Counted from the stretch's first letter, positions 5,595 to 22,330 are shown. The stretch is 55,178 nucleotides of DNA from Thermoplasmata archaeon (GCA_020348445.1 CP070751.1:896138-951315); one strand, 5' to 3'. Notes: a model not told the origin generated them from the letters alone. Numbers and translations are program-made.

Positions 5595-5672
5595 TATCAT
5601 TCCCACCAAAATTAGGAAGGTGAATGTATAATACTGAACTTACTCCCAATTGGGGAGATTGATAGCAACTTA

Positions 5673-6128
5673 ATGACGATGTTAAAAGACAGATTATCTT
5701 ATCTTCCCTTTGAGCTCTCGATCCTCGAGGGAGCCTCTGTTCCCGAGAAATCGTACAATGCTCTAAGAAACCAGTACGAGAGCCTTTTGTTCCTTGATTT
5801 GGCACGGCAATATCCAGGTGATAGGGTCCTGGGTATCACTGATGTGGATCTGTTTGCAGAGCCTTTAAATTTCGTATTCGGGCAGGCGGAGATATCTGGC
5901 AAAGCCGCTGTGATTTCACTCTCAAGACTCAAAGGTAAAAAGAAGATTTATTATAGTAGAACTGTAAAAGAAGCTGTGCACGAATTGGGCCACACATTTG
6001 GGCTTAGGCACTGCGATGAAGAAACTTGTGTAATGCACTTTTCCAATTGTCTAGCAGAGACAGATTTGAAGGGGGAGAAGTACTGTGCAAGTTGTGATAA
6101 AGACTTGAGGAGGAAAGGATTTTCCTAA
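5673..6128 (+). CDS. amzA: Archaemetzincin (M54 zinc metalloprotease); true start may lie upstream at about 5628-5634
   Basis: HELGHTFGLRHC..ETCVMHFSN...D.K...YC.SC (metzincin motif, Met-turn and Cys4 site); NFVFGQA. Confidence 0.93.
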   Translation: MTMLKDRLSYLPFELSILEGASVPEKSYNALRNQYESLLFLDLARQYPGDRVLGITDVDLFAEPLNFVFGQAEISGKAAVISLSRLKGKKKIYYSRTVKEAVHELGHTFGLRHCDEETCVMHFSNCLAETDLKGEKYCASCDKDLRRKGFS

Positions 6129-6289: not shown

Positions 6290-7774
6290 TTATTTTAGAA
6301 ATGTCTCCCTCTTATAGGCCGTTGGAATGAACAGTATGAGGGCGGCGAATATTTCCAGCCTGCCCAGCCACATACAGGCAATGAGCCATATCTTGGCAAG
6401 TTTAGGTAGGGCGGCATAACTGAATTCGGGTCCAACAGTCCCTAATGCAGGACCTACATTACCCAGACACGAGGCCGACGCCGAGGCTCCCGAGATCATG
6501 TCCAATCCCAGAGCGAGCATGGCCCCTGTGGAAATAATGAATATGAGGATGTAGGCAAAGAAGAACATGGTTATCGTATGAAGGTCCTGCTCCGAAACCA
6601 CCGTATTCCCGAGGCGCACATGCACCACTTCACGGGGATTTAAAAGCTGCCTGAGCTTCTTCTTCAACATCTTGAGCATGAGAAGAACTCTAACCTGTTT
6701 CATACCCCCTCCTGTTGATGCGGCACATCCTCCAATGAACATGGCAAGTAAAAGTACAAATCTCGAGAATTCAGGCCAGGCATCATAGTTTGCAGTTGTA
6801 TAACCTGTGGATGTCATAATCGATACCGTTTGAAATGCCGAGGTGCTTGCTGAGTTCCCTGATTCATATCCACTTGCAACCTGACTGAAAAACACAAAAA
6901 AGCCTGCGAAAAATATCATGATCATGTAAAACCTGAATTCCGGATCTCTCAGATACTCCCGACCCTTGCCGTGTATGGCATGATAATGGAGTGTGAAGTT
7001 GGTTCCCGCTATTATCATGAACACGATGATGACCCAATGTACAAGAACAGAGTAATATCCCACACTTTCGGTGTGCGGGGAGAATCCTCCTGTGGACATG
7101 GTGGTGAAAGCATGATATACAGATTCATAGAATGGCACCCCCACCAGTACCAACGCTATGACCTCAGCCATGGTAAAGAAAAGATAGACAAGCCAAAGAA
7201 GTTTGGCAGTTTGCATAATCGTTGGTTTTAATTTGTGCAAAGAAGGCCCGGGGGCTTCTGCCTCAAAGAGCCTTCTTCCTCCCCGGGTCAACCGCGTCAA
7301 TACGGCCACACTAAGCACAATAATACCCATTCCTCCGAGCCACTGAAGTAGCGCCCTCCAGAATAATACACTCTGATGATGGTCCTCTAGTGGATAAGAA
7401 AGGACAGTGGCCCCAGTTGTTGTAATACCCGACATGGCCTCAAAATACCCGTCAGTAAAAGAAGATACAGAACCTGCCAGAATAAATGGAAGCGATGCAA
7501 AGAAAGCCACGACCAACCATCCCGCTGATACAATGGCAAATCCCTCTTTATCTGTAAAATCCTCCCTTTTTCCTGCAATCTCCATAACGATACCGCAAAC
7601 TAAAGAGATAAAGAAGCACAAAATAAATATTATAATGGTACCCGGGATTTGCGTGAAAATGAATTCAGAACTAGATTCCCAGAAATAAAGGGCTGGAATT
7701 ATAGGAAGTAAAAAAGCAAAGGAGAACATCTTAAGGATGGTCCCAATCGTACCTAGTACGACACTCACCCTCAA
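6290..7774 (-). CDS. trkH: Trk potassium uptake membrane protein
   Basis: Four pore-loop glycines (SGITTTGAT, TMSTGGFS, TSTGY, GNVGP), WLGGMGI, GGCAASTGGGMK, MWLGRLE. Confidence 0.96.
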   Translation of the reverse strand: MRVSVVLGTIGTILKMFSFAFLLPIIPALYFWESSSEFIFTQIPGTIIIFILCFFISLVCGIVMEIAGKREDFTDKEGFAIVSAGWLVVAFFASLPFILAGSVSSFTDGYFEAMSGITTTGATVLSYPLEDHHQSVLFWRALLQWLGGMGIIVLSVAVLTRLTRGGRRLFEAEAPGPSLHKLKPTIMQTAKLLWLVYLFFTMAEVIALVLVGVPFYESVYHAFTTMSTGGFSPHTESVGYYSVLVHWVIIVFMIIAGTNFTLHYHAIHGKGREYLRDPEFRFYMIMIFFAGFFVFFSQVASGYESGNSASTSAFQTVSIMTSTGYTTANYDAWPEFSRFVLLLAMFIGGCAASTGGGMKQVRVLLMLKMLKKKLRQLLNPREVVHVRLGNTVVSEQDLHTITMFFFAYILIFIISTGAMLALGLDMISGASASASCLGNVGPALGTVGPEFSYAALPKLAKIWLIACMWLGRLEIFAALILFIPTAYKRETFLK

Positions 7775-7780
7775 ACATGC

Positions 7781-9121
7781 TCACCCCGAAAACCATCTAT
7801 CGATTGCCATGCGATCTGTGGGATAGTAAAGGAGAAATAACCTTTCGCCCTCCGAGATCATGTGATTATCTTCTGGAATAAAAGCATCACCCTCACGCAC
7901 AGCTCCTGCTATTAACACAGTCCCAATTGCTGAGGATAACTCACCCACTGCCTTGCCCACACATCTCATTTTGCGGATCACTTTTGTATTCTTTAATAAA
8001 ATATCCTCACTACGAAGTATTTTTCTTCTTAGGGGGTCACCACCTCTGAGAAGGTTCATTATTGTTTTCACTAGAAGTAGGTTAGGGACCACCACATCAT
8101 CCACGAGGGTTTTTTCCACGGACGCCTTCAAATCGATTCGATCCACAAGGGCGAGTGCAGTGGGAACACCGAATTGCTTCGCTAAAACTGCGATGAGGAG
8201 GTTGCGCTCCATTCCGAATCCTGTTGCAAGCATGACATCGAATCGTCCAATCTCCTCCTTTTTAAGAACTCCATGACCGAGAGGATCGGATTGAATCACA
8301 GAGGCCCTTGGAAGGGTTCTTGCCACATCTTCTGTCTTCTTTTTTGATATCTCCATTATGACCACAGATATGTCAGAGTCTAGAAGTTTCTGTGCCAGGG
8401 TTAATCCTGTATTGGTTGCGCCTGCTATAAAAACATCCTTGACCTCTTTATACGGATTTATACCCGTTCCAAGTGCTTTTTTTACATCCTCAACCTTAGC
8501 TCTGTTGTCCAATAATATGCACAATTCGTCCTCCTCCTGAAGGACTGTGGGGTCCAAGGGGATGATCTGCTCCACACCTCTGAAAACTGATATAATTCGA
8601 GAACCCGTGGGTAAATCTAATTGCGATATTTGTTTGCGGCGGCAAGGAGATCTGAACTCCACAACCATATGATAAGTCTTCATATTTCGCTTCCTCAATT
8701 CCCTAAGGGAAGATGGGAAGGAGAAGACCCGTGATATCTGAGCAGCTGTAATTAAAGGGGGACATAAGACAACGTCCACACCTATGTGAACATACCTTCT
8801 GGACACTGCTTCATTTGCTAGGAAGGGGTCGTTGACACGGGCAATGGTCCCGCAACCGTAATAGTTGGCAAGTGAACAACTTGTAAGGTTTGCACTATCA
8901 TCCTTTGTCACACCCAGGTAGTAATCACTTTTTTCGATTCCGGCATCTTTGAGGGAATCGGGATCACTGACATCTCCTTTAATTACAAGGGCATCTATAT
9001 TACTTGCTCTTGCAGCCGCTGATTCATTGTTCTCGACAAATGCCACCTCATGCCCCTCGGCCCTAAGAAGCATGCCAAGGTGTTGACCAGCGTCTCCGGC
9101 ACCCCCTATAACCACATGCAT
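7781..9121 (-). CDS. trkA: Trk potassium uptake gating subunit with two RCK modules
   Basis: N-terminal Rossmann GGAGDAG, GDVSDPDSLKDAGI, duplicated RCK_N/RCK_C layout; immediately upstream of trkH. Confidence 0.9.
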   Translation of the reverse strand: MHVVIGGAGDAGQHLGMLLRAEGHEVAFVENNESAAARASNIDALVIKGDVSDPDSLKDAGIEKSDYYLGVTKDDSANLTSCSLANYYGCGTIARVNDPFLANEAVSRRYVHIGVDVVLCPPLITAAQISRVFSFPSSLRELRKRNMKTYHMVVEFRSPCRRKQISQLDLPTGSRIISVFRGVEQIIPLDPTVLQEEDELCILLDNRAKVEDVKKALGTGINPYKEVKDVFIAGATNTGLTLAQKLLDSDISVVIMEISKKKTEDVARTLPRASVIQSDPLGHGVLKKEEIGRFDVMLATGFGMERNLLIAVLAKQFGVPTALALVDRIDLKASVEKTLVDDVVVPNLLLVKTIMNLLRGGDPLRRKILRSEDILLKNTKVIRKMRCVGKAVGELSSAIGTVLIAGAVREGDAFIPEDNHMISEGERLFLLYYPTDRMAIDRWFSG

Positions 9122-9135
9122 ATAAAATCCAGCTC

Positions 9136-10092
9136 CTAAGTCTGAGAATCCTTGAAAGCTATATCTATCCCCTCTTTTTTAAACTCCTTAATTATGTTCT
9201 CTGATATAGTTGTGCGCATCTCATTTCGCTCTGATATTGGGCAGAAATAAGTCAAAATAACCATGAGACCCTCAGGCTCAAATGAAAGCATAAGCGAGGG
9301 CATTGAGGGAACGTTATCCGAGGAGGATGAATTTTTAATCATATCCTGTCTGTATTTCCTCATGATGGGACCTGCTATGCTATTCCCAACCTGGGTTATC
9401 AGATCCTTGGCCAATAGATGATCGGTTTTTGCTGGCAATAATACCTTGATCTCGTCCCAAACCAGGGACCTTTTAGGGGATATCGTAAAAATCGGACTCG
9501 TAAAAACAAAGGAGTTCGGTATCAGCACCTCCCTGTTCGTGTAATGTTCCTCGCCCATGAATTGATCTGTCTCTATCAATCTAGTATTCATGATCGTTAT
9601 CCCAACTATTCTACCTTTTATCCCCTCCACCTCTACCAGGTCCCCGATCCTCAGTCGATGCTGAAATATAATATGCAGCCAGCCCGCAAAGTTTACAAAG
9701 GCTTTGTAGAACATTATAATGATAATCAAGAATAGGATTCCTATCAGTATACCTATACTTGTAATATCCCCTACAAGCACAAAAGCGAGAATTAGAAGTG
9801 AGGCGATCCAAATTGCATACTTAATGAACTGCCAGGTGTAGGTTGCCTCCTGTGAGGACAGGAACCTGGATAGGGCTCTCATGAAAAAAGGCTGGAGAAT
9901 CGAGATAAAAAGAAGTGTGGCAATCAAAACGAAGATTACAGTAACAGCAGGTGGCAAAAGCACCAAAAGAACGTCCTTAAATGAATCGGCGCCTAGGAAC
10001 CTCCCAAGGTAAGCGGCGATTACAACAAGTATGAAAAGTAGGGCTATTTCGCCAAGGATGAGCTTTACCAAACGATTAGAGCTCTCTTCCAT
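9136..10092 (-). CDS. mscS: Small-conductance mechanosensitive channel family protein
   Basis: N-terminal TM helices, NFAGWLHI...LRIGDLVEVEGIKGRI..I, IPNSFVF. The ATG at 10092 is preferred over the ORF-track start at 10113. Confidence 0.85.
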   Translation of the reverse strand: MEESSNRLVKLILGEIALLFILVVIAAYLGRFLGADSFKDVLLVLLPPAVTVIFVLIATLLFISILQPFFMRALSRFLSSQEATYTWQFIKYAIWIASLLILAFVLVGDITSIGILIGILFLIIIIMFYKAFVNFAGWLHIIFQHRLRIGDLVEVEGIKGRIVGITIMNTRLIETDQFMGEEHYTNREVLIPNSFVFTSPIFTISPKRSLVWDEIKVLLPAKTDHLLAKDLITQVGNSIAGPIMRKYRQDMIKNSSSSDNVPSMPSLMLSFEPEGLMVILTYFCPISERNEMRTTISENIIKEFKKEGIDIAFKDSQT

Positions 10093-10282
10093 ACCACGGT
10101 AATATACAGTCATTATATTTCAATTTTCTCTCGATGATGTTTAAGGGCAATTGTTCCTTTAAAGCCCCGTTTCTTGAGAGGAATTGAGTTTTTATTCTTG
10201 TCAGTTTCCTCTGTTGATTAAAAGAAAAAATATATAATCTTCTATTCCGTTTACAAATAAGAATTAAAAAGGGGGAGTGTAA

Positions 10283-10702
10283 TTGGCTGAATTGTTAGAT
10301 AAATTTGAAAAAAGACTATTGAATACCAGAGAGAAGATAAGGACCACCAGAAGGGAGATAACAGGTGGTGTTGCAGAGGACAAGGCAAGAGAGCTTGGCA
10401 AAAAGGTCTACAATGAGCTTGACGAGGATCTGGAAGCCCTTTCTAAAGCGATAAAGGAGCAGAGGGCACAGGCAAAGGAGCGAAGAGCAAAGATCTATGA
10501 CGAATTAGAAGAGAGCGTAAGTGCTGCAAGAACCAAGCTACGGAACAAGAGAAGGGATATCACAGGTGGAGTGGTGGAGAATAAGGCAAAGGATGCTGGA
10601 CGGTATGTAAAGGAGAAAGGCGGGGCTGCTTTAAAGGAGATCGAGGAGGATATATCCAAGATCTCGGAGAAATTGAAGAAGGCAAAAGAGGAGGAATATT
10701 AA
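10283..10702 (+). CDS. Hypothetical charged helical protein with internal duplication
   Basis: GGGGAG RBS before a TTG start; RR[ED]ITGGV.E[DN]KA occurs twice. Confidence 0.75.
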   Translation: MAELLDKFEKRLLNTREKIRTTRREITGGVAEDKARELGKKVYNELDEDLEALSKAIKEQRAQAKERRAKIYDELEESVSAARTKLRNKRRDITGGVVENKAKDAGRYVKEKGGAALKEIEEDISKISEKLKKAKEEEY

Positions 10703-10735
10703 CCCACACATTTTTTTGTTAGGGAGGTAGATGAA

Positions 10736-11245
10736 ATGGAAGAAAAAAAATCCATGGAAGAGACAAAACACGATAAGTTCGTGGAAATGGAAAAAATGGA
10801 TCTAGCAGAGTTAAAAAGTGAAGCTGCAAGAGCAACCGAAGAAACCTCAAAATACAGGCTCAAATTCAGGGAGTACGAGGAAAAGGCCAAGGAACTCATA
10901 GCAAAGGCTGCCAAGCTGGAAGGGAGGGCCGATATTTTGGAAGATAAATCCCGAGAGGCACAGGCAAAAAAGGGTGAATTTAAAGAAGCCTCGGAAGCAG
11001 CATGTTTAGAGAACCTGAAGATAGAATGCGCAAAACTGGAGGCAAAGGTTGCAAAAATGGAAACAAAGAGTGCAAAATTGGAGTTAAAGGCCGATAAAAA
11101 GGATCGAAGAGCAGCAGAGCTTCGGGAAAAAGCCCAGGAAAATATAGAAAAAGCGGCGGAAACCATTGAAAAGATAAAATATCACGAGAATGAGGAAATG
11201 GAGTACAGGAAAAGGATCCTAAAAATGGAAGGAAAGACCCAATAA
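10736..11245 (+). CDS. Hypothetical Lys/Glu/Ala-rich coiled-coil protein
   Basis: GGGAGGT RBS; repeated AKLE-type heptads; no catalytic motif seen. Confidence 0.75.
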   Translation: MEEKKSMEETKHDKFVEMEKMDLAELKSEAARATEETSKYRLKFREYEEKAKELIAKAAKLEGRADILEDKSREAQAKKGEFKEASEAACLENLKIECAKLEAKVAKMETKSAKLELKADKKDRRAAELREKAQENIEKAAETIEKIKYHENEEMEYRKRILKMEGKTQ

Positions 11246-11348
11246 TCCAATAACTGAAGTTATTACCCATATAAAAGAGTGTATCATAAAGATAAAATTG
11301 TATGAATTTCAAACCACAACCTGAGCTTGTATCCCCGTGGTGAGATAA

Positions 11349-12431
11349 ATGTCTAGATTATTCAAAAAAACATCAAAGACAGCGGGTCTTCCACCTGGAA
11401 CCTTGATTCACGTAGGTGATAAAAAGACAGAAAAGGTAAAAGTAACCATCATGGACTACGATGAATCGCATTTTCAGGAAAAGGAATGTAAAAAAATCGA
11501 GGAGTGCTTCACTTTTAAAGACAAACCAACAGTTACCTGGGTAAATATCGATGGCATTCATCAGGTCGATATCATCGAAAGTATAGGAAAGGCATTCAAC
11601 ATCCATCCTCTGGTTCTGGAAGACATTCTGAACACTGGCCAGCGGCCTAAACATGAGGACTTCGATGATTACATCTTCACAGTATTGAAGATGCTCTACT
11701 ATGATGAAAAAGAGAAAGTTGTAAAGACCGAGCAGGTTAGTTTGATTCTTTGCCAAAACTTTGTAATCTCTTTTCAAGAAAGGGAAGGAGATGTTTTCAA
11801 TCAAATCAGAGAAAGGATCAGAAGCGGCAAGGGTCGGATAAGGAAGATGGGGGCCGATTATCTCGCTTATGCTTTATTGGATGCAATCGTGGATGGCTAT
11901 TTTATTGTTCTTGAGAAATTCGGTGAGAGAATCGAGGGAATGGAGGAGGAGCTTGTCACCGAGCCAAAACACGAGACCCTGCAGACCATCCACGCCCTGA
12001 AAAGGGAAATGATCTACCTTAGAAAATCCGTATGGCCCCTTCGAGAGGTGATAAGCGGGCTGGAGAGGGGAGAATCACCCCTAATTAAGGAATCAACACA
12101 CATCTATCTCAGAGATGTTTACGATCACACGATCCAGGTCATTGATTCCATAGAAACATATCGGGACATGACCTCGGGTATGCTGGATCTTTACCTCTCA
12201 AGTATTAGTAACAGGATGAACGAGGTGATGAAAGTCTTGACAATTATAGCCACCATTTTCATTCCTCTAACGTTTATTGCAGGTATTTATGGTATGAACT
12301 TTAATCCTGAAAAAAGTCCACTTAATATGCCTGAGCTGAACTGGTATTGGGGATATCCTTTGGCTCTATTTTCCATGATCTTAATATTATTGATTATGCT
12401 GATTTACTTCAGGAGAAAGAAGTGGTTGTAG
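11349..12431 (+). CDS. corA: Magnesium/cobalt transporter CorA
   Basis: GLPPGTLIHVG, HPLVLEDI, QRPK.E, LRDVYDH, MNEVMKVLT and the YGMNF signature. Confidence 0.97.
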   Translation: MSRLFKKTSKTAGLPPGTLIHVGDKKTEKVKVTIMDYDESHFQEKECKKIEECFTFKDKPTVTWVNIDGIHQVDIIESIGKAFNIHPLVLEDILNTGQRPKHEDFDDYIFTVLKMLYYDEKEKVVKTEQVSLILCQNFVISFQEREGDVFNQIRERIRSGKGRIRKMGADYLAYALLDAIVDGYFIVLEKFGERIEGMEEELVTEPKHETLQTIHALKREMIYLRKSVWPLREVISGLERGESPLIKESTHIYLRDVYDHTIQVIDSIETYRDMTSGMLDLYLSSISNRMNEVMKVLTIIATIFIPLTFIAGIYGMNFNPEKSPLNMPELNWYWGYPLALFSMILILLIMLIYFRRKKWL

Positions 12432-12435
12432 AAAA

Positions 12436-13281
12436 TTATTTAGACTTTACTTTTGAAGGTTTCTTATCTTCAATCAGTCTACCTTCAAGTTCGTTTTTAA
12501 ACCAGACCTCTCGCTGCGGGAACGGAACAAAGATACCATTTTCCTCGAGTGTAGTTTTTATCTTCCACAAAAGTTCTCTTCGGACTGGATACCACTCTGG
12601 GGATGGAACCCAGAACCTGACCATGATATCAACTGAGCTGTTTCCAAGCTCTTTAACAAATACCATCGGCTCGGGATTTTTAAGTGTGATGGGGTGTTTA
12701 TCTATTATACCTTTGATGATGATAACTGCCTTGTCAGCATCGTCCTTGTATCGAATGCCAACCGTGTATTCCAGCCTCCTTGCCACATGGGTGACAAGGT
12801 TGGAAATATTGGTTGTGAAAACTTTTTCGTTGGGTATTCTGACAAAAACACCGTCGTACGTTCTGATTATGGTGGACATTATCCTGACATCCTCCACATA
12901 CCCCATCTTCCCCTCTACTTCAACCTGATCACCCACCTTCATGGGCCTTTCAATTACCAGGAAAATCCCTGCCACCAAGTTCCCAATCACGCTCTGGCTT
13001 GCAAGGCCGATGATCAAACCCAAAAATCCAGCTGCAACAAGAAGACCAGAGGGATCTATCCCCAAGATAGGTAAAATCAGGATAAAGGCGATTAATATGA
13101 TGATTGAATAAATCATCTTTGTTACACTTCTTAGATGCTCTTTTTTAACCTTATCCTTAAGTGATCTTCTTAAATTGAGGGATATTGCTTTCCCAATGAG
13201 CATAGCTATAACGAGAATTAAAACAACAACGATCAGGTCCAGAAGCGTGACATTTCCAAAGAGGATTATATCCAAATTCAT
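12436..13281 (-). CDS. mscS: Small-conductance mechanosensitive channel
   Basis: GLIIGLASQSVIGNLVAGIFL, ERPMKVGD, IPNEKVF, LGNSSV. The ATG at 13281 overlaps the upstream stop (ATGA). Confidence 0.93.
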   Translation of the reverse strand: MNLDIILFGNVTLLDLIVVVLILVIAMLIGKAISLNLRRSLKDKVKKEHLRSVTKMIYSIIILIAFILILPILGIDPSGLLVAAGFLGLIIGLASQSVIGNLVAGIFLVIERPMKVGDQVEVEGKMGYVEDVRIMSTIIRTYDGVFVRIPNEKVFTTNISNLVTHVARRLEYTVGIRYKDDADKAVIIIKGIIDKHPITLKNPEPMVFVKELGNSSVDIMVRFWVPSPEWYPVRRELLWKIKTTLEENGIFVPFPQREVWFKNELEGRLIEDKKPSKVKSK

Positions 13282-13985
13282 AATCCCCACTCCATTATAA
13301 ATTTGGTTGTCGCCACCTTGATTCTTCTTGCAGTATACAGTTCGATGGATTTACTCATCTCCTTATATAGAGGGGAATCATAGAATTCGATTTCACCGAT
13401 TCCGCCGGTGTAGATCCTCATGCTTGCCCTCATTGCCACCGTATTCTCATTGTAATATATCTTCATCCCGTAGGCATTGAACACGACCTGGGTAATTTCA
13501 TGCCATCTTGCTGTTGTGTTGGAGATTGTCAATTCGACTACACCCTCTCTAACAGGATCCACAGCTGGGAGCGAGGAATGAACATCACTTGCATAGTGCT
13601 TGCAAATAACACCGCCTCTTACTTCACCATAAAGGGTTAACTTCTGCTTTGCTAAAGTCATTATATCAAGAGATTTGGACTCCTCGCGGCCAATTATGAA
13701 GATCCCGATTTCTATGGGGAATGTTAAAAATATCTTCTTTGTGGCTTTCGGCTCAACTACAACAGGTCTTTTGAGCTCTAAAAGAAGATAGGGAGTCATT
13801 TCCTTTGGTTTGTGCAGGGGTTCTATAGGGTTGATAAGAATCCTTTTGCTCTCTGTAAGAAGGATTTTGTTTACATTCTCACCGTTGCATGTTCTTTTAT
13901 AGAGAAGGGAATCTCCCTTCTTTTCAAAAGAAATTAAAATGTCGTCTTTTTCTATTGTTACAGGTGCTTCATGAAAGCCAAACAT
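13278..13985 (-). CDS. DUF432 domain protein
   Basis: MFGFH.AP, LTFPIEIGIF, KLTLYG...G.IC.HY.S; translationally coupled to mscS, a pairing seen in euryarchaea. Confidence 0.75.
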   Translation of the reverse strand: MFGFHEAPVTIEKDDILISFEKKGDSLLYKRTCNGENVNKILLTESKRILINPIEPLHKPKEMTPYLLLELKRPVVVEPKATKKIFLTFPIEIGIFIIGREESKSLDIMTLAKQKLTLYGEVRGGVICKHYASDVHSSLPAVDPVREGVVELTISNTTARWHEITQVVFNAYGMKIYYNENTVAMRASMRIYTGGIGEIEFYDSPLYKEMSKSIELYTARRIKVATTKFIMEWGL

Positions 13986-14163
13986 GGGATTTCATTGTAA
14001 TTTGTGTATATAAAAGTTTTGAGAAGAGCGAAACTTGAAATTCAAGATATTTTTATATCAGATATTAAAATGCATTTATTTCTAATAATTTATGCTAAAG
14101 TGGCAAAAAATCCTCACTTTGTTAGGTAAATATTAAGTTCTATAACAATATGCCCCCATCTAC

Positions 14164-14787
14164 ATGAAGGATGAAATAAACTATGTAATGATAGATCCTG
14201 AATGCTTCTACTGTCTTGTCCTCTCCTCCATAGAGGTCTACAATAAGGAGACAACGGGATTTTTAATGGGCAACTACAGAATGCGGATCATAAATGGAAA
14301 GAAGAGAAATATCGTGGCCTGTGAGGTTGCCTATCCCCTGCAGACAGCCTATAGAAATCCCACTTTTGTCACGAAAGGCAACGAACGTGCATTTGAGAGG
14401 GTCAGGGCCACCATACCATCCATGAACCTCTATCTTTTGGGGGAATATCACAGTCACCCTTTCACAGATGCCTCCTTGACTAAAGATGATATGAATTATA
14501 TCCAAGATAGACTTGAGCAGATATATGGAAAAAAGGAGAATCTTATAAAGAATTACTGGCTTGAATTGGTGATTTCTATCAATAAAAAGAAGTATAAAAA
14601 GCCCCATAAACTGGGCTGGTCATGGCGGGATTACCCCCAAAAGGCTAAATGTAACGTTAAAATCAACCCCTATCTTGGTTACGACCTTACTTTTGGTGGA
14701 TATTGGGTCTATGTGGATGATGGCAGAATCAGAAAGATCCAGACCACGGTGTATATACCATGGGTTAAGGATTACTGGTCGTGGTAG
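14164..14787 (+). CDS. JAB/MPN (Mov34) domain protein
   Basis: N-terminal ETTGFLMG plus GEYHSHP-x6-T-x2-D, a JAMM-like motif with Ser replaced by Thr. Confidence 0.8.
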   Translation: MKDEINYVMIDPECFYCLVLSSIEVYNKETTGFLMGNYRMRIINGKKRNIVACEVAYPLQTAYRNPTFVTKGNERAFERVRATIPSMNLYLLGEYHSHPFTDASLTKDDMNYIQDRLEQIYGKKENLIKNYWLELVISINKKKYKKPHKLGWSWRDYPQKAKCNVKINPYLGYDLTFGGYWVYVDDGRIRKIQTTVYIPWVKDYWSW

Positions 14788-15046
14788 TAAGAATTTTTAT
14801 AACTAGGTATTTAAATACTCCCGATACAGTATAATTAGATAATTATGGAGTATTTTTTCCCAGATTAAAATCTTAATTTGTGGTTTATTCATTTAATTTA
14901 ACATATAATCATCGTCTTCAAATCGTATTTTATAATAAAAATAGTGAATTTAATGAAATATCTCAATATATTATCATAAATTATGAACTTTTTTATGATT
15001 TATTATTTAAATTAAGTATAATTTATAAACTTCTTACATAAATTAG

Positions 15047-15061
15047 CGAAAAGTTTAAATA
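15047..15061 (+). promoter_or_regulatory. Candidate BRE/TATA promoter for the leader region
   Basis: CGAAAAG followed by TTTAAATA, matching the archaeal BRE-TATA consensus. The surrounding DNA is AT-rich, so specificity is limited. Confidence 0.45.
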
Positions 15062-15093
15062 ATTAATTAACATTGAGGGTGATATCTATCCCA

Positions 15094-15147
15094 ATGCACA
15101 GATACTCATATATGATACCGGTGTAGGATGCTAGAGTAGCTGTGCAT
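15094..15147 (+). other. 14-bp inverted repeat (hairpin) in putative 5' leader
   Basis: ATGCACAGATACTC (15094-15107) pairs with GAGTAGCTGTGCAT (15134-15147) at 13 of 14 positions. Confidence 0.6.
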
Positions 15148-15175
15148 AATTTAGAGTTCTAGGAGGTGCCAACCA

Positions 15176-15232
15176 ATGGATAAAAAAAAGGAGAAAAAGG
15201 GGAAGAAGAAACAAGAGAAAAAACCAGAGTGA
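15176..15232 (+). CDS. Candidate 18-aa Lys-rich micro-ORF (MDKKKEKKGKKKQEKKPE)
   Basis: AGGAGGTG RBS at 15161-15168, 7 nt before the ATG; 10 of 18 codons are Lys; below the ORF-track length cutoff. Confidence 0.5.
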   Translation: MDKKKEKKGKKKQEKKPE

Positions 15233-15261
15233 TTTATATGCATGCATCCCATCCAAAAAAT

Positions 15262-15310
15262 AGGTGTTATTGACATTAAATTCTAATGTTGATAACACCT
15301 TTCTCATTTT
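15262..15310 (+). terminator. 17-bp hairpin plus U-rich tract (terminator-like, or a palindromic operator upstream of the lrp TATA)
   Basis: AGGTGTTATTGACATTA-aattc-TAATGTTGATAACACCT pairs fully with two G-U wobbles, followed by TTCTCATTTTT. TTTATATA lies at 15308-15315. Confidence 0.5.
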
Positions 15311-15346
15311 TATATAAATATTTTCATATTACACGAGGGTGAAAAG

Positions 15347-15805
15347 ATGGCAAGAAAGTTAAAACTTGATAAAATTGATAAAAAGATTATCGAGCTTTTG
15401 AAGGAAAACAGCAGAATGACCATTTCAGATATTGCCCGTGAGATAAATGATCTCACCGAATCTACTATAAGATATAGGTTGGAGAAGTTGGACAAAGAAG
15501 GATATATAAAGAATTATACTGTTATTCTAGATTCAAAGAAATTTGAAAAAAATATTTCTGTGATATTTAACTTAAAAGTCCTTCCTGAGCATATAGATAA
15601 TGCAATTGACTATCTAAAAGAACTTGGACCATTATCTAACGTATATCTTACCACGGGAACCTATCCCCTTGTGGTCATCGGTTATTTCAAAAATCAAAAA
15701 GAGATAACAGAGTTCATTACGAAGAAATTGAAAAACGTTCCATTGGTTGACTATGACGTGGCCCAGATACTAAAAAAGGAGAGGGAAATACATTATTGGG
15801 CATGA
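15347..15805 (+). CDS. Lrp/AsnC family transcriptional regulator
   Basis: LDKIDKKIIELLKENSRMTISDIAREI...ESTIRYRLEKL...GYIKNYTVILD HTH; RAM domain with TGTYPL. Confidence 0.95.
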   Translation: MARKLKLDKIDKKIIELLKENSRMTISDIAREINDLTESTIRYRLEKLDKEGYIKNYTVILDSKKFEKNISVIFNLKVLPEHIDNAIDYLKELGPLSNVYLTTGTYPLVVIGYFKNQKEITEFITKKLKNVPLVDYDVAQILKKEREIHYWA

Positions 15806-15851
15806 GGAGGATTTTCTTATTTGTTTTAAACAATATTTAGAGATGTAAAAT

Positions 15852-16883
15852 ATGAAAAAAGAAGAGTTATTAAAGGAAGAAATCGAACATATAGATATCA
15901 AGGACATTGATTCCACATCAATTATTGAAGCTTTTGAAAAGATGTCCTTCCAAGCTAGAAATTTAGCAAACGCCGCATCAATTTATGATAAAATGCTTAT
16001 GGATAATGACTGTACAATAATACTAAGTATAGCAGGTTCATTATTCAGTGCGGGTTTGAAAAAAGTTGTACGGGATTTAGTGAGGCATGATATGGTTGAT
16101 GTTATTGTATCAACCGGAGCTATTATGGTGGATCAGGACTTCTTCGCAGCTCTCGGTTTTAAACATTATAAAGGTACCCCGATTATAGATGACGAGATGC
16201 TTAGAGAATTGATGATCGATAGAATATATGATACTTTCATAGACGAAGAACAGCTCAGGACATGTGATATAACACTAGCTGAAATAGCAGATTCCCTTGA
16301 ACCTCGACCTTATTCCTCACAAGAATTTTTATGGGAAATTGGACGTTACCTTCATATGAAAAGAAAGGACAACGACTCCGTGGTATTGGAGTGTTATAGA
16401 AAGAATCTGCCCATATTCGTTCCAGCATTCTCAGACTGTTCTGCAGGTTTTGGTCTAGTATATCATCAGCATAAGCGGGGATTACAACCAAAGGTTACCA
16501 TCGACAGCGTTAAGGATTTTTTAGACCTGACAAAAATAAAGTACGCTTCAAAGGAGACAGGGCTGGTTATGATTGGGGGAGGAGTTCCAAAGAATTTCGC
16601 CCAGGACATTACCGTTGCTGCTGAAATTTTAGGAGCCGATGTGGGCATGCATAAGTACGCAATCCAAATAACTGTGGCTGACGAAAGAGATGGAGGGCTC
16701 TCAGGGTCAACATTAAAGGAGGCACATTCATGGGGCAAGGTGGATAACATCTATGAGCAGATGGTCTTCTCAGAGGCTACCATCGCTTTCCCACTTATTG
16801 CCAGTTATGTTTACCACAAAAACAACTGGACCAAGAGGCAACCAAAATGTTATGCAAAGATGCTTAAGGAGATTATGGAATGA
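15852..16883 (+). CDS. Bacterial-type deoxyhypusine-synthase-like enzyme (probable agmatine-condensing / homospermidine-pathway synthase)
   Basis: EHIDI...[73 protein letters not shown] with the catalytic Lys retained. Confidence 0.85.
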
Positions 16884-17425
16884 TCCCATCAAGGGTGTTC
16901 TTCACAAGGGGTGTAGGAATCCACAAGGATAAACTAGCTTCATTTGAGCAGGCATTAAGAAAAGCTGATTTTGAAAAATATAATCTTGTTAATGTATCTA
17001 GCATATTCCCTCCAGGGTGTAAAATAATTTCCAAGGAAAAAGGATTAAGTTTATTAAAACCAGGGCAAATAACATATATTGTACTCGCCATGAACTCCAC
17101 CAACGAGCCAAACAGGTTATTATCAGCTGCTATAGGATTAGCTAATCCCGTGGACAAGAAAGAATATGGGTACCTTTCTGAGCACCATGCCTTCGGTGAA
17201 ACTGCAAGGAAATCTGGAGATTATGCCGAAGATCTTGCAGCCACAATGCTTGCCACCACACTTGGGATAGAATTTAATATCGATACAGCATGGGATGAAA
17301 GAAAACAATTGTATCGAGCCTCAGGGAAGATAATCAATACAATGAATATTTGTCAATCGGCGAAGGGTAAAAGGGAAGGAGTCTGGACCACAGTCGTTGC
17401 CGCTGGAGTATTTATTCTCGCGTAG
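16880..17425 (+). CDS. pdaD: Pyruvoyl-dependent arginine decarboxylase
   Basis: [30 protein letters not shown] (Ser-Ser autocleavage site), GYLSEHH; ATGA overlap with the upstream gene. Confidence 0.93.
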
Positions 17426-17446
17426 AACTCTCGGAGACATAAAATA

Positions 17447-19612
17447 ATGAAAGTAGCAATCATATACAATAAGGACATGACTGGAGTTATCAATCGCTTA
17501 GGTTTGCAGAACAAGGAAAGGTACAATCCAAAGACCGTCAAATTAGTGGCTGAGGCACTTGAGAAGGGGGGTCATAACGTTCGTGTTATTGACGGGAACA
17601 TGCACGTTATCGAAAGTTTGCAGGAATTTATGTCAAGAGTGGTTGAAGGTGAACGATTGGGCATGGTTTTCAATATGGCATATGGCATTCAGGGTGAAAG
17701 CAGATACACACATCTTCCGGCCATGCTTGAAATGCTGGGTATACCTTATGTTGGCTCAGATCCTGAGGGCCATGCATTGGCATTAGATAAGGTAATTGCC
17801 AAGATAATAATGCAACAAAACGAGATACCAACTCCAAAGTTCTGGGTGTTTTCCACCGGAGATGAGGATATGGAATCTGTGGAATATCCGGTTGTTGTCA
17901 AACCGAAAATGGAGGCAGTATCCTACGGTTTGGAAATAGTTAATTGTGAAGCGGACCTACGTAAGGCAGTAAAATATACGGTAGCTGAGTTTCAGCAACA
18001 AGCCCTGGTTGAGCAGTTTATCAGAGGCAGAGAATTCATAGTAGGCTTGCTTGGCAATAGCGAACCCGAGGCCTTTCCCGTTTTGGAAATCGACCTAGGT
18101 GGCGATCCTGATGCATTCCAAAGTGCCATGGACAAGCTAAAAGAACCTAGGGAGAAAATCTGTCCAGCAAATATTTCGCAAAAACTTTCTGATGAAATGA
18201 TAAAACTCAGCAAGGAAGCCTTCAGGATTCTTCACCTTAAGGATTTTGCTAGGGTGGATATTCGTATTGATGAGAATGAAAACATATTCATACTTGAGAT
18301 AAACTCAATGGCCAGTCTTGGAAAAACAGGTTCCTATGTTTATGCAGCTTCAAAAGCTGGATACGATTATACTAGGTTAATAAATAAGATCCTCGATATT
18401 GCAGCAGTTAGATACTTTTCTGAGGATTTTGCATTTACCCTTGAGAATAATGTACCCAAGAAAAAGAAACTCCCTGTATTTGTTCGTGTCCGTACTTTTA
18501 TACGAAGCAAACAAGAAAATGTGGAAAAAATGCTGACTAAAATGGTCAATATAAATACATATGTACGAAATGTAGATGGAGTAAACGAACTGGGCCTGTT
18601 TATGTCCAAGCAATTGAAACCCATGGGATTTGAATATAGATCCATTCCCCAAGCAGAAGTGGGTAACATTCTTTTTTTCAGCAATACAGAGGAAGATAAA
18701 TATGATGTTCTATTTCTTTCACATCTGGATAACTCGATACCATTTAAAAGGCATGTACATTTCAACCAAAAGGGTCATAAACTTTATGGGACGGGAATTT
18801 GGGACAACAAAGGCGGTATGGCAATTCTGATTGCAGCCCTTCGTGCACTGCGGTTCGTGAGGATTTTACGCACAATGAAAATCGGGATCTTGCTGACCAC
18901 TGACGAAAATCTTCAAGGTAGGATAAGCAGTAAGACCATCAAAGAGATTTCAAGCCGCGCAGAAATCGTTTTAGGTTTAAGTGGCTCGCAAATAGATAGT
19001 TCATTGATAACTTCACGCTCGGGCGCAGCCGTTTACAACTGCCAGATGAACCTTGTCAATGCAAAAGATGCAATAGATGTAGCCAAGGCCAATTCGAAAT
19101 TCACGCGTCTTCTTTCAAAGCTAGCGAAACTTTCAGATAAAGAGGATGGAGTGATTGTGAGTCCAAGGGAGGTAAAAATCAACTCGAACATTTCTAATTT
19201 ATTTTCCCATGGTGAAGCGATTTTAAGTGTAAGGTTCAATGAACCCAAACAGGCGGAGATATACGACAATAAGATCCATTCCCTGGTAAAAAAAGTAAAA
19301 GGTGATAAAATTCAGGTGCAGATCAGTGGAGAAACTCGCAGGAATCCCATGGTGAAAAATGAAGAGAGTATAAGGATTTTCAAGAAGGTCAAAGATGTAG
19401 CTGATAAAATAGATATCAGGATATTAGATGAGCACAGGTGGAGCTCTGCAAATATTTGTTTTGTGGATTCCAAAAAACCCAAAATCGATGGTCTGGGTCC
19501 CCCTGGTGATGTATCAAAGGAGAATGAGGAATATATACTGCAGCATAGTCTGCTGGATAGGGCAACTTTGCTTGCACTCCTTTTAATAAAATTGAAAAAG
19601 GAAGATGAATGA
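17447..19612 (+). CDS. Fusion of a D-Ala-D-Ala-ligase-like ATP-grasp domain and an M20 (carboxypeptidase G2-like) metallohydrolase domain
   Basis: LEMLGIPYVGS...ALDKVIAK, YPVVVKP, VEQFIRGRE, DFARVDIR...LEINS; then FLSHLD, GIWDNKGG, TTDE, DGLGP. Confidence 0.88.
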   Translation: MKVAIIYNKDMTGVINRLGLQNKERYNPKTVKLVAEALEKGGHNVRVIDGNMHVIESLQEFMSRVVEGERLGMVFNMAYGIQGESRYTHLPAMLEMLGIPYVGSDPEGHALALDKVIAKIIMQQNEIPTPKFWVFSTGDEDMESVEYPVVVKPKMEAVSYGLEIVNCEADLRKAVKYTVAEFQQQALVEQFIRGREFIVGLLGNSEPEAFPVLEIDLGGDPDAFQSAMDKLKEPREKICPANISQKLSDEMIKLSKEAFRILHLKDFARVDIRIDENENIFILEINSMASLGKTGSYVYAASKAGYDYTRLINKILDIAAVRYFSEDFAFTLENNVPKKKKLPVFVRVRTFIRSKQENVEKMLTKMVNINTYVRNVDGVNELGLFMSKQLKPMGFEYRSIPQAEVGNILFFSNTEEDKYDVLFLSHLDNSIPFKRHVHFNQKGHKLYGTGIWDNKGGMAILIAALRALRFVRILRTMKIGILLTTDENLQGRISSKTIKEISSRAEIVLGLSGSQIDSSLITSRSGAAVYNCQMNLVNAKDAIDVAKANSKFTRLLSKLAKLSDKEDGVIVSPREVKINSNISNLFSHGEAILSVRFNEPKQAEIYDNKIHSLVKKVKGDKIQVQISGETRRNPMVKNEESIRIFKKVKDVADKIDIRILDEHRWSSANICFVDSKKPKIDGLGPPGDVSKENEEYILQHSLLDRATLLALLLIKLKKEDE

Positions 19613-21240
19613 TGGATATAGAAAAAATTGAATCGAAATTCAAGTCCACGAAGGACGGAAAGTGTGCAGAATCCCCAAATGGTATGATCTCAACAGCCTT
19701 TCCTAATGCTACAGATGCAGGAATCGAAATATTGATGAAAGGCGGCAATGCTGTGGATGCTGCTTGTGCTTCTGCTTTGGCACTCGGGGTTTGCGAACCC
19801 CAGGCAAGTGGTCTTGGCGGGCAGACGATGATGTTGATATTCACGGGTAAAAAGGTAAAAGCCATAGACGGATCCTCCAGGGCACCTTCACTGGCACATT
19901 CAAAGGCTATTTACAAAGGGGACCGATCAATTGGTTATAGAGCGACTACTGTGCCTAGCACACCAGCTACCTTATGGTACGTCCATAACCGATATGGCCG
20001 TCTAAAATGGCAAGAGATATTAAATCCCGCAATAAGAATCGCCGATGAGGGATACCCCATAACCGAATTGCAAAGACGGCTTCAAAAACGCGAAATTAAG
20101 GAATTTAAAAAAATCGAATCAAGATCCGGTGCAAAATATTTTTTAAAAAATGGAAAACCATACAAAGTAGGCGATATCTTCAAACAGCCTGAACTTGCTT
20201 CTCTTTTGAGGCGACTGGCAGAAAAAGGTGTAAAGGAATTCTATCAGGGAAAAGTAGCAAAACAAATTGATGCAGATATGCGGGAAAATGGTGGATTGCT
20301 TAGGTATGATGATTTATCATTAATTCCGTGGCCCATTGTGCGCCGCCCTTTAAAGCGCGAATTCAGAGGACTGATAATCCATACAATGCCTCCGCCAGGA
20401 GCTGGAAGAACACTACTTTTTACCCTGCTCATGCTGGATGAATTACCCCCAAAAATATTTATAAAGGATAAAAATAAACAATGCTACCTCCTAGCTAAGG
20501 TGTTCAGAAAGGCATTTTTGGAAAGAGAAGACAGGCCCTTTGACCCCAATTTCTATCCGCAGCTTTCTGAAAAACAAATGTTGAATAAAAAATATGCAAG
20601 ACAATGCATATCAGACATTCTTGCAAAAGTTGATAAAACAATACTTCCAACATTAGTTACTGACGACGAGCTCAGGGGTGAAACAACACATCTTTCGGTT
20701 ATTGACAGCGAAGGTATGGCTGTGAGCTTGACCCAATCCATTGAAAAAGTATATGGCTCGAAAGCAGCAGCGGAAGGCCTGGGATTTCTTTATAATAATT
20801 ACTTAATAGACTTTGAGTACAATATGGTCTCGCATCCATTTTATCTTAGGCCAAATGCGGTTCCTTGGGCCACCGTTGCTCCCTCTTTGATCTTTAATGA
20901 AGAAAAGTTATGGATGGCTGTGGGAAGTCCTGGCAGTGAACGTATATTCTCAACTATTGCACAATTCCTGATTAATATAATTGATAAAAATATGTCAATG
21001 GATAAAGCCATGCTGGAACCACGGATGCATTGCTCTTTAGGCGGGCTGGTTAGTCTTGAAGTAGAGCGTTTTCCAGGTTCTCTTATTGGATTTCTCGAAG
21101 ATAAAGGATATAGAATAGATGCAAGGGAACCATATTCATTTTACCTCGGGGCAATCCATGCAGTAATTAAAAAACATGATGGTTCTGGTTTTCAGGGAGT
21201 TGCCGAAGTAAGGAGGGATGGTACGGCAGGAGGATATTAG
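19609..21240 (+). CDS. ggt: Gamma-glutamyltransferase family Ntn hydrolase
   Basis: GGNAVDAA, EPQASGLGG, FYQG.VA, GETTHLSVID (nucleophilic Thr at 20683), GSPG; ATGA overlap with the upstream gene. Confidence 0.9.
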   Translation: MMDIEKIESKFKSTKDGKCAESPNGMISTAFPNATDAGIEILMKGGNAVDAACASALALGVCEPQASGLGGQTMMLIFTGKKVKAIDGSSRAPSLAHSKAIYKGDRSIGYRATTVPSTPATLWYVHNRYGRLKWQEILNPAIRIADEGYPITELQRRLQKREIKEFKKIESRSGAKYFLKNGKPYKVGDIFKQPELASLLRRLAEKGVKEFYQGKVAKQIDADMRENGGLLRYDDLSLIPWPIVRRPLKREFRGLIIHTMPPPGAGRTLLFTLLMLDELPPKIFIKDKNKQCYLLAKVFRKAFLEREDRPFDPNFYPQLSEKQMLNKKYARQCISDILAKVDKTILPTLVTDDELRGETTHLSVIDSEGMAVSLTQSIEKVYGSKAAAEGLGFLYNNYLIDFEYNMVSHPFYLRPNAVPWATVAPSLIFNEEKLWMAVGSPGSERIFSTIAQFLINIIDKNMSMDKAMLEPRMHCSLGGLVSLEVERFPGSLIGFLEDKGYRIDAREPYSFYLGAIHAVIKKHDGSGFQGVAEVRRDGTAGGY

Positions 21241-21277: not shown

Positions 21278-22330
21278 TTACAATCCCTCCAATCCAACTC
21301 CTTTCACCCTAACCTCGGAAAGTCCATCCTTCTTTCTAATATCGAATTTCACTTTCAGGAACCTCTCAATAAGCCACATATTGGTTTTTGCGTGATTGGA
21401 AAGCTCCCTTGTCAGAAATACGCTCTCGCCCTCGGCCAAAGCCATATAAGGTAAAAACTGATCTGCTGCGTGTACATCCAGTGTGGCATTGGAATTTATT
21501 TCTGTTTGTAATTTTTCCACGGCATTCTGACTCACCATTTCAGCAGGAATACCTTTTTCTCCTAGGCAATTAGTACCTAATACAGTGTTCTCGTAATTTG
21601 CCCAAATTACTATTCCAGTTCCCACACCGCATGCAGGATCTTTGCCCTGGGGATAATGCTCCTCTGATATCTTCACATCATCAAAGCCCATTAACAGCAA
21701 GGAGGCAGTATGCTTCATCCTGTTGGTGATGCGATTTGGTAGATTGGACACATGGGCGATTCCTTTGACATTTTCTAACGCCCCCTTTTCCCTAAGAGTC
21801 AGGGGAAGGAGTTTCTTTGCAGGCTTGATTCTTGCAATGATCTCCCCTCCCCCTTTGGGATAATGCCCCCTTCTTCCAACCACCACATTTACCTCTCCCC
21901 CCATCTTGTGCAAAAGCGGAGCAAAGACAAATCTGAGGTAGTCTATAGGCGGTGACCATTTAACATCCGTGCCTCCTGTAATGGTAAACTCGGTTTTATG
22001 GTTGGCAAATAAACTGGGCAGAAGACAAGCTGAGAGCACCAACGTAGTGCTGCCTGCTGTAAGGATATCAAAGTGGAATTTTCCTCCCTTGATTTTATTG
22101 GGGTAAAAAAATATCTCTCGGGAACCTTTTGCCAATCCCGTAACTCCTGCATTACAGAGCTTTGAAACAGATTTAATTGCAGTAACGTGCTGGTTGCTTA
22201 AGCCCGGATTTGGTCTTTGTGCTCTTATATTTGTGATACGAGCAGGCTTCTGCGTAAGAGATGATAGGGAAATCGCAGTGCGGAGGATCTGTCCTCCCCC
22301 CTCCCCATGGGAACCATCGATTTCGATCAT
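21278..22330 (-). CDS. rtcA: RNA 3'-terminal phosphate cyclase
   Basis: IDGSHGEGGGQILRTA, IRAQRPNPGL.NQH, TAGS..L, GGTDV.WSP, GHYPKGGG, DVHAADQ. Confidence 0.97.
   Translation of the reverse strand: MIEIDGSHGEGGGQILRTAISLSSLTQKPARITNIRAQRPNPGLSNQHVTAIKSVSKLCNAGVTGLAKGSREIFFYPNKIKGGKFHFDILTAGSTTLVLSACLLPSLFANHKTEFTITGGTDVKWSPPIDYLRFVFAPLLHKMGGEVNVVVGRRGHYPKGGGEIIARIKPAKKLLPLTLREKGALENVKGIAHVSNLPNRITNRMKHTASLLLMGFDDVKISEEHYPQGKDPACGVGTGIVIWANYENTVLGTNCLGEKGIPAEMVSQNAVEKLQTEINSNATLDVHAADQFLPYMALAEGESVFLTRELSNHAKTNMWLIERFLKVKFDIRKKDGLSEVRVKGVGLEGL

Follow-up and report, generated by a model that had tools for sequence, protein, structure and literature searches.

The cluster described here occupies positions 15347-21240 of the window, by which is meant the whole 55,178-nucleotide stretch of a sediment Thermoplasmata archaeon that was analysed. 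It consists of five genes, all on the + strand: an Lrp/AsnC-family regulator (15347-15805, with HTH_24 and HTH_AsnC matches), a SpeY-type DHS homologue of the kind that would couple agmatine with itself to N1,N9-bis(guanidino)homospermidine (G44G) (15852-16883; PF01916 and NF002699), the genome's second copy of the pyruvoyl-dependent arginine decarboxylase PdaD (16880-17425; PF01862 and TIGR00286), a 721-residue open reading frame (ORF) in which a ligase is fused to an M20 domain (17447-19612; Dala_Dala_lig_C and Peptidase_M20), and a GGT-family Ntn hydrolase (19609-21240; PF01019, 392 bits). A preceding sequence-only reading had reported these five co-directional genes, and the ORF positions found here are identical to those it gave; its gaps of 46 nucleotides (nt) between Lrp and SpeY and of 21 nt between PdaD and the ligase are reproduced, its ATGA overlaps of SpeY with PdaD (16880-16883) and of the ligase with GGT (19609-19612) can be read directly, and the Pfam and NCBIfam matches agree with its gene identities (Lrp, DHS-like, PdaD, ATP-grasp/M20 and GGT). 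Its interpretation of the row as one new pathway is partly supported overall. With about even confidence, the cluster is taken here to be a composite co-regulated operon lying in an acquired island for ion and osmotic homeostasis.

The polyamine half corresponds to a module already known. The DHS homologue scores 571.7 bits against NF002699, the '1,9-bis(guanidino)-5-aza-nonane synthase' model (cut-off 500), with which the genome's two other DHS-family genes reach 316 and 135 bits, and it is the only DHS-family gene above the SpeY cut-off across the six genomes of the order. Its protein (P0003) reads HSWGK, in which SWGK is presumably the catalytic lysine motif of DHS-type enzymes. PdaD scores 195 bits with PF01862 and 109.9 bits with TIGR00286 (cut-off 106.95), lies slightly below the cut-off of NF009064 (196 against 207 bits), and contains VSSI, which we take to be its self-processing Ser-Ser site. 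No arginase-family gene was found in the cluster, as the sequence-only reading had remarked of the agmatinase, and a search of the rest of the genome located a single agmatinase about 2.96 Mb away, as the second gene of the aIF5A operon. The genome holds three DHS-family and two PdaD genes in total, among them a canonical DHS (NF002294, 466 bits) divergently oriented from the first PdaD gene, and a further DHS-like paralogue which occurs in all six genomes of the order (L088-L093) and scores about 310 bits with both the SpeY and the DHS models, below both cut-offs. Since the canonical DHS, the DHS-like gene, the first PdaD and the sole agmatinase all lie elsewhere, SpeY-PdaD is an accessory unit in this genome. 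At one of the DHS-like paralogues (L093, G000:C1:3514426-3515421) the adjoining gene is FAD oxidase-like. At the aIF5A locus (L001, G000:C1:3867686-3871447) the aIF5A gene stands directly 5' of the genome's only agmatinase, an adjacency that suggests an agmatine-linked route of aIF5A modification; such a route has been proposed for some archaea. SpeY homologues join two agmatines to give G44G, and every SpeB tested, housekeeping agmatinases included, turned G44G into homospermidine (PMC10981699, PMC13625781). Whether archaea hold agmatine-dependent DHS homologues is a question raised in PMC13625781, and judged by its sequence the window SpeY would be one such, acquired beside a canonical DHS.

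The fusion ORF divides into an intact Ddl-like ATP-grasp half (17447-18460; PF07478, 112 bits) and an M20 half (18467-19612), with a mean identity across the family of 69% for the first and 44% for the second. The closest PDB matches of the ligase half are Ddl and VanA, aligning only from residue 67 onward; the first 66 residues are unalignable to Ddl, the protein gives no PF01820 match for the Ddl N-terminal substrate domain, and all of the NCBIfam Ddl models stay below cut-off (166.9 bits at best, against 243). Look-alikes in the ESM Atlas were generic 'Ddl family' clusters only, and no longer fusion form naming a partner was found at E <= 1e-40, which is weak evidence. The M20 half has carboxypeptidase G2 (CPG2; 1cg2) as its best PDB match over about 340 residues, a likeness at the level of the fold in which the second-shell residues D428, D486 and E695 are kept and are invariant in the family. 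Unlike CPG2, however, it has lost zinc ligands: where CPG2 has His, Asp, Glu, Glu and His, the window protein has H, D, (E)N, S and K/S, so that His and Asp remain and the other three are substituted, and in an alignment of 76 homologues each of the five ligand positions, like that of the Glu general base, is variable. Because metal and catalytic residues are lost across the family, this half is probably not a peptidase but a scaffold or binding domain, and the bifunctional ligase-peptidase of the sequence-only reading gives way to a ligase carrying a degenerate, dead M20 fold.

Relatives of the ligase were surveyed with one genome per species, which gave 314 stretches encoding relatives; 80 loci (L002-L081) were fetched, all adjoining ORFs were clustered, and MscS, CorA and DHS-family genes were counted within 10 kb of the ligase. 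Carriers include ANME-2c and other Methanosarcinales, Bacteroidales, Ignavibacteria, Spirochaetota, Planctomycetota, Acidobacteria and Syntrophomonadaceae, and the ligase with its dead M20 half and its GGT or class-I glutamine amidotransferase (GATase) partner is a conserved and mobile module found in hundreds of genomes of marine and sediment archaea and bacteria. GGT adjoins the ligase in 30 of the 80 loci and a class-I GATase in 35, the two together in none; the ligase-to-GGT gap is mostly −4 to +5 nt and the GATase-to-ligase gap is likewise short, and one ligase residue tracks the type of partner. The partner-type GATase retains its Cys and His-Pro-Glu motifs, and by their motifs both partner types look catalytically intact. 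The mutual exclusion of GGT and class-I GATase looks like a non-homologous replacement of one glutamine- or gamma-glutamyl-cleaving partner by the other. This swap, documented on 80 loci, is new. An FGase-family amidase follows ligase-GGT in 16 loci. The window has the ligase-fusion-then-GGT arrangement of this orphan trio, with its 4-nt overlap and GGT translationally coupled to the ligase; for the third member, FGase (PF05013), no match was found anywhere in the genome, nor is one present downstream in the relatives L002, L095 and L101.

The window GGT scores 348.6 bits with TIGR00066, slightly below the cut-off of 357.85, and matches over its full length the B. licheniformis (4y23) and E. 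coli (2e0w) enzymes, its nearest structures. Like bacterial GGTs, the 26 ligase-linked GGTs (that of the window and 25 homologues) keep the autoprocessing Thr, T359/T360 being invariant with the Thr nucleophile included, and the donor-pocket Arg, which is present in all; the pocket Asp is kept in 22 of the 26. They differ in that Tyr398 and Ala-Thr stand in all or nearly all of them for Gln/Glu and Ser-Ser, and Gly-Ser for Gly-Gly, giving the signature NNY, PWAT, GSPGSER against the classical NNQ/NNE, PLSS, GSPGG, in that the GGT of the module is always coupled to the ligase, and in that the window GGT has, judged by eye, no N-terminal signal-like segment. The roles given here to the replaced pocket residues are those of the E. 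coli structure, and the signature hints at a non-classical donor substrate.

Around the ligase the recurrent neighbours are ion channels. Of the 80 loci, 20 have MscS and 10 have CorA near the ligase; in several Bacteroidales MscS is placed between the partner and the ligase (GATase-MscS-ligase), and in the ANME-2c loci L004 and L028 a DUF432-MscS pair follows ligase-GGT-FGase. No Lrp gene was found beside the ligase at any of these 80 loci. An MGH1-like glycoside hydrolase, of a family of compatible-solute hydrolases, was noted near the ligase of a Phycisphaerales chromosome (L065), and in the vicinity of the ligase, or of the block with SpeY, a DUF5698/DUF2179 membrane protein turns up repeatedly; the places concerned are L065:8321-9619 and 14675-15277 and the P0126 contig. 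A carrier system of the LysW/LysX/LysK type was considered for the ligase and rejected, no such carrier gene being found in the window.

The sequence-only reading named as a refutation that the DHS/PdaD and ligase/GGT pairs should never be linked in other genomes; this is not the case, since clusters of the PdaD/SpeY type adjoin the ligase in Phycisphaerales, in Lentimicrobiaceae and in several Bacteroidales. At 12 of the 80 loci, and likewise in the window relatives L095 and L101, the ligase has a DHS-family gene no more than 10 kb away, and 68 of the 80 have no polyamine genes at the ligase. The order is SpeY-PdaD-ligase-GGT in Thermoplasmata, PdaD-SpeY followed by five other genes and then ligase-GGT-FGase on the Phycisphaerales chromosome L065, PdaD-SpeB-SpeY-ligase in Lentimicrobiaceae (L068), and ADC-SpeB-SpeY-small acidic protein-GATase-(MscS)-ligase in Marinifilum and its relatives, with variants placed 3' of the ligase in L072 and L080. 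The ligase-adjacent DHS genes span three DHS subfamilies, and on a FastTree ligase tree SpeY adjacency changes state at least nine times, some of the 'absent' states being truncated contigs. Were SpeY clusters beside the ligase consistently without SpeB, G44G would be the ligase substrate; this idea was rejected, as L068, L080 and several Bacteroidales have SpeB in the cluster. The most complete array of polyamine, ion channel and ligase genes seen is that of Draconibacterium (L055:3103-13595), nine co-directional genes for ADC, a SpeY-like protein, an acidic small protein, CorA, a GNAT-CN-hydrolase, GATase, MscS, the ligase and DUF389, in a row without SpeB. The acidic protein is itself recurrent: a protein of about 106-115 residues with a long acidic D/E tail is encoded 3' of speY in eight of the nine Bacteroidales copies beside the ligase (L051:8810-9130, L059:8118-8444, L072:11928-12275 and six others, L081 lacking it), has no Pfam or NCBIfam match, and could be polyamine-binding or carrier-like.

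At the level of whole genomes the association is looser. Of 251 evenly sampled Bacteroidales genomes, 9 carry the ligase, 110 carry DHS-like genes and 5 carry both. DHS-like genes are thus not enriched among the ligase carriers (5 of 9, where the background is 110 of 251), adjacency being all that is enriched, and 17 of 41 ligase-bearing genomes, complete chromosomes included, have no DHS-family gene. A genome of the same genus as the window's (G003; locus L002 = G003:C136) has ligase-GGT behind an AT-rich upstream region of its own, and in its assembly no SpeY was found above the family cut-off. Given these carriers without a DHS-family gene, and ligase-GGT without SpeY in a genome of the same genus, the association of ligase and SpeY is facultative, and as unrelated bacteria share the pairing it is probably real.

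The cluster is the right-hand end of an island of about 15 kb (6290-21240), and the unit proposed earlier is to this extent too small: its five genes are coupled as described, and the real unit is larger. The first island gene, on the − strand, encodes the K+ transporter TrkH (6290-7774; PF02386, 229 bits), and it is followed on the same strand by the K+ uptake regulator TrkA (7781-9121; TrkA_N and TrkA_C) and by the second copy of an MscS-like channel (9136-10113; PF00924), a member of cluster c20, which is also represented beside the ligase at L011 and L029. Two small genes separate this MscS-like gene from the Mg2+ channel CorA (11349-12431, + strand; PF01544, 256 bits). On the − strand again are the mechanosensitive channel MscS (12436-13290; all three MscS Pfam domains) and a DUF432 protein (13278-13985; PF04254, 135 bits), which overlaps the start of MscS by 13 nt, a pair that recurs in L101, L004, L028 and the P0126 contig. 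A gene for a 207-residue JAMM/MPN-like protein (14164-14787, + strand; weak Prok-JAB match) comes next, in which the motif HSHPFTDASLTKDD was read as JAMM-like HxH-x7-T-xxD; genes for 207-residue proteins lie at the same position, between DUF432-MscS and lrp, in L101 and in the P0126 contig, their homology having been checked only by reading the L101 translation. That the island is acquired and absent from the sister genome G001 is apparent from its flanks, as G001 has the genes for RtcB, an M54 peptidase and RtcA contiguous (L100, G001:C1:2332800-2346800), and in the window (4113-6128 and 21278-22330) this set is split by the island with clean boundaries. The right flank yielded the island boundaries; DNA-level synteny of the left flank in the sister genomes gave no match.

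Between the 207-residue protein and lrp is a leader (15047-15346, + strand) in which an archaeal promoter-like box, a Lys-rich micro-ORF behind a strong AGGAGGT site (15176-15232) and a 17-bp hairpin with a T-run (15262-15310) can be read. Promoter box, micro-ORF and hairpin are conserved in the related metagenome-assembled genome L101 (9310-9381 and downstream), which suggests a leader-based control of the lrp operon. A scan for sigma-70 promoters and terminators stayed at the level of shuffled sequence, a sigma-70 model not being meaningful for an archaeon. The regulator itself scores 23 bits with AsnC_trans_reg, just below the cut-off, and its place upstream of SpeY is conserved in L101 and in the P0126 contig. 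The whole block MscS-DUF432-207-residue protein-leader-Lrp-SpeY-PdaD-ligase-GGT is no chance neighbourhood and is conserved in L101, a Thermoplasmata genome with a SpeY 82% identical to that of the window; L095 keeps the row as well, parts of it are on two metagenome contigs cut at their ends (that of P0126 included), and in relatives the row is kept at 82-89% identity.

The reading preferred here is that the Lrp-type regulator and the conserved leader would control two modules, presumably co-transcribed. In the first, PdaD would convert arginine to agmatine and SpeY would couple two agmatines to G44G; the single agmatinase of the genome, encoded with aIF5A, could then convert G44G to homospermidine. 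In the second, the ATP-grasp ligase on its dead M20 scaffold would form an amide bond, its substrate probably being a small solute or peptide derived from glutamate or glutamine, and the cytoplasmic GGT-type Ntn hydrolase would cleave or transfer a gamma-glutamyl or amide group of the compound or of a precursor, a role that the class-I GATase would take in other lineages. The modules would lie together because both contribute, alongside Trk, CorA and MscS, to keeping cations and osmotic pressure in balance, and a shared intermediate would not be required. GGT and GATase partners both form gamma-glutamyl-enzyme intermediates, and because of this, and because CPG2-like and FGase-like relatives recognise glutamate amides, we infer a glutamate/glutamine chemistry for the ligase module. 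When loci with and without SpeY adjacency were compared, 151 of 335 ligase positions reached at least 90% identity in each set, and not one segregated with the adjacency; since no residue tracks SpeY adjacency and the ligase half is 69% identical across lineages, its substrate would be the same with and without SpeY.

Several observations weigh against so loose a joining of two modules. The adjacency of ligase and SpeY recurs with varied gene order in Thermoplasmata, Phycisphaerales, Lentimicrobiaceae and Marinifilaceae/Prolixibacteraceae, and three of the five Bacteroidales genomes with both genes have them within about 2.5 kb, far above chance, which by our own estimate (a 20-kb span in a genome of 3-6 Mb) would give adjacency in less than 1% of genomes. 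Behind such adjacency there could be, rather than shared regulation alone, a metabolite common to both modules, for instance agmatine or amines derived from arginine, and the 4-nt overlaps and the 21-nt gap suggest a stoichiometric co-expression of PdaD and the ligase. The osmotic theme is drawn only from gene neighbourhoods, and a literature search for the ligase family found no paper on it.

The alternative closest to the sequence-only reading is that the five genes form one joined pathway: the ligase would acylate agmatine, putrescine or homospermidine, most likely with glutamate, and GGT, or in other lineages a GATase/C26-type enzyme, would remove or transfer the gamma-glutamyl group, the product being a conjugated polyamine that serves for storage, for detoxification or as an osmolyte. 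A physical linkage that four or more lineages show, in differing gene orders and with three DHS subfamilies, speaks for it, as do the tight coupling in the window, the row conserved in L101 and L095, and the precedents of PuuA/PuuD (ATP-dependent gamma-glutamylation and a C26 hydrolase) and of the ligase-amidase fusion GspSA acting on spermidine. We nevertheless hold it to be somewhat unlikely. The 17 carrier genomes without a DHS-family gene, the 68 loci without polyamine genes and the ligase-GGT of G003 without SpeY stand against it, the likeness of the ligase across lineages with and without SpeY (69% identity of its ligase half) argues against G44G or SpeY-derived homospermidine as its substrate, and the M20 half cannot supply a peptidase step. 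Of the single pathway claimed earlier, then, the recurrent physical linkage stands, and the dependence of the ligase-GGT pair on polyamine genes does not, as the pair is independent and mostly found without them; a gamma-glutamylated polyamine is possible as the product and is not the best-supported reading.

A more specific proposal, which we regard as unlikely, is that the ligase uses agmatine or an amine of the polyamine pathway to make an acyl (for example glutamyl) guanidino-amine or polyamine conjugate, which GGT or GATase would build or recycle and which would act as a cation or osmotic buffer released via MscS. If true, the conjugate would represent a type of compatible solute, or of polyamine derivative, not described before and common to archaea and many anaerobic sediment bacteria. 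Doubtful, in turn, is an accidental or purely regulatory splice, in which a mobile SpeY-PdaD cassette landed between an Lrp gene and ligase-GGT in one Thermoplasmata lineage and the modules would have in common a promoter and no function. SpeY-PdaD does travel as a unit, relatives of 76% identity being found with a divergent SpeB and without the ligase (L103 and the P0135 contig), and a sister genome has ligase-GGT alone; however the same adjacency arose independently in Planctomycetota and in several Bacteroidota, where chance would seldom produce it, and the row is kept in the diverged relatives of the window. Hardly credible is a role of the enzyme as a genuine D-Ala-D-Ala (or D-Ala-D-X) ligase for a cell-wall-like polymer, for all that Ddl and VanA are its best Pfam and PDB matches, given scores far below the Ddl cut-offs, an unalignable N-terminus, a Thermoplasmata host, and conserved partners that are GGT or GATase and ion channels and not mur genes.

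The link to polyamine genes, the island and the Lrp regulator with its leader together narrow the search for the product to where glutamate/glutamine, arginine-derived amines and ion balance meet, and cultured carriers in which it could be pursued exist in Marinifilum, Labilibacter and Draconibacterium. The SpeY-PdaD chemistry is already known; literature searches for the ligase family and for the combination of genes brought up nothing relevant besides the papers on SpeY, with no description of the five genes together, as the sequence-only reading had supposed. What is new, besides the partner swap, is the repeated link of the ligase module to the agmatine/SpeY homospermidine pathway, the ion-channel island as its context, and an Lrp regulator with a conserved leader. 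The archaeal SpeY would for its part, by sequence, bear on the question raised in PMC13625781.

With Ddl and VanA (8evx, 2dln, 1e4e) the window ligase shares alignable central and C-terminal ATP-grasp domains and nucleotide/Mg motifs that appear kept (E..N in LEINS, and RVD), whereas it has FNMAYG where Ddl has LHG, lies below all Ddl cut-offs with an N-terminal substrate domain that cannot be aligned, is fused to an M20-like domain, and belongs to a family that never adjoins mur genes in the surveyed loci. The osmolyte pathway to NAGGN uses the GNAT/ATP-grasp protein Ngg and the amidotransferase AsnO, and in its parts list the Bacteroidales version of the module resembles it in outline, having a GNAT-containing protein, an ATP-grasp ligase, a glutamine amidotransferase and osmotic-stress neighbours; the ligase of the module, however, is Ddl-like and not the ATP-grasp of Ngg, its GATase is class-I and not class-II, and the window operon has neither a GNAT nor a GATase gene. 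The Puu pathway, with the gamma-glutamylputrescine synthetase PuuA and the C26 hydrolase PuuD, and glutathionylspermidine synthetase/amidase likewise pair a ligase with an amide-cleaving enzyme, and the window ligase is paired with a gamma-glutamyl-cleaving enzyme (of class-I GATase fold or GGT) and linked to polyamine genes. Yet it is an ATP-grasp enzyme and not GS-like, the hydrolase-like domain fused to it is inactive, and the window lacks the oxidase or dehydrogenase steps; a search of 6290-21240 for the Puu-type families (GS-like ligase, amine oxidase, aldehyde dehydrogenase and C26 hydrolase) found none, making the analogy mechanistic only. With the agmatine-dependent SpeY/CdmS homospermidine pathway of Thermus thermophilus (Li et al., JBC 2026, PMC13625781; Sci Rep 2024, PMC10981699) the window shares a DHS homologue above the cut-off of the G44G-synthase equivalog and, as in Caldilinea-type clusters (PMC13625781), a SpeY overlapped by a pyruvoyl arginine decarboxylase. 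In contrast to that pathway, the window cluster is without a ureohydrolase or iminohydrolase, it is found in an archaeon already equipped with a canonical DHS, an extra DHS-like gene and a first PdaD, and its SpeY-PdaD pair is joined in an operon to an orphan ligase-GGT module and an Lrp regulator.

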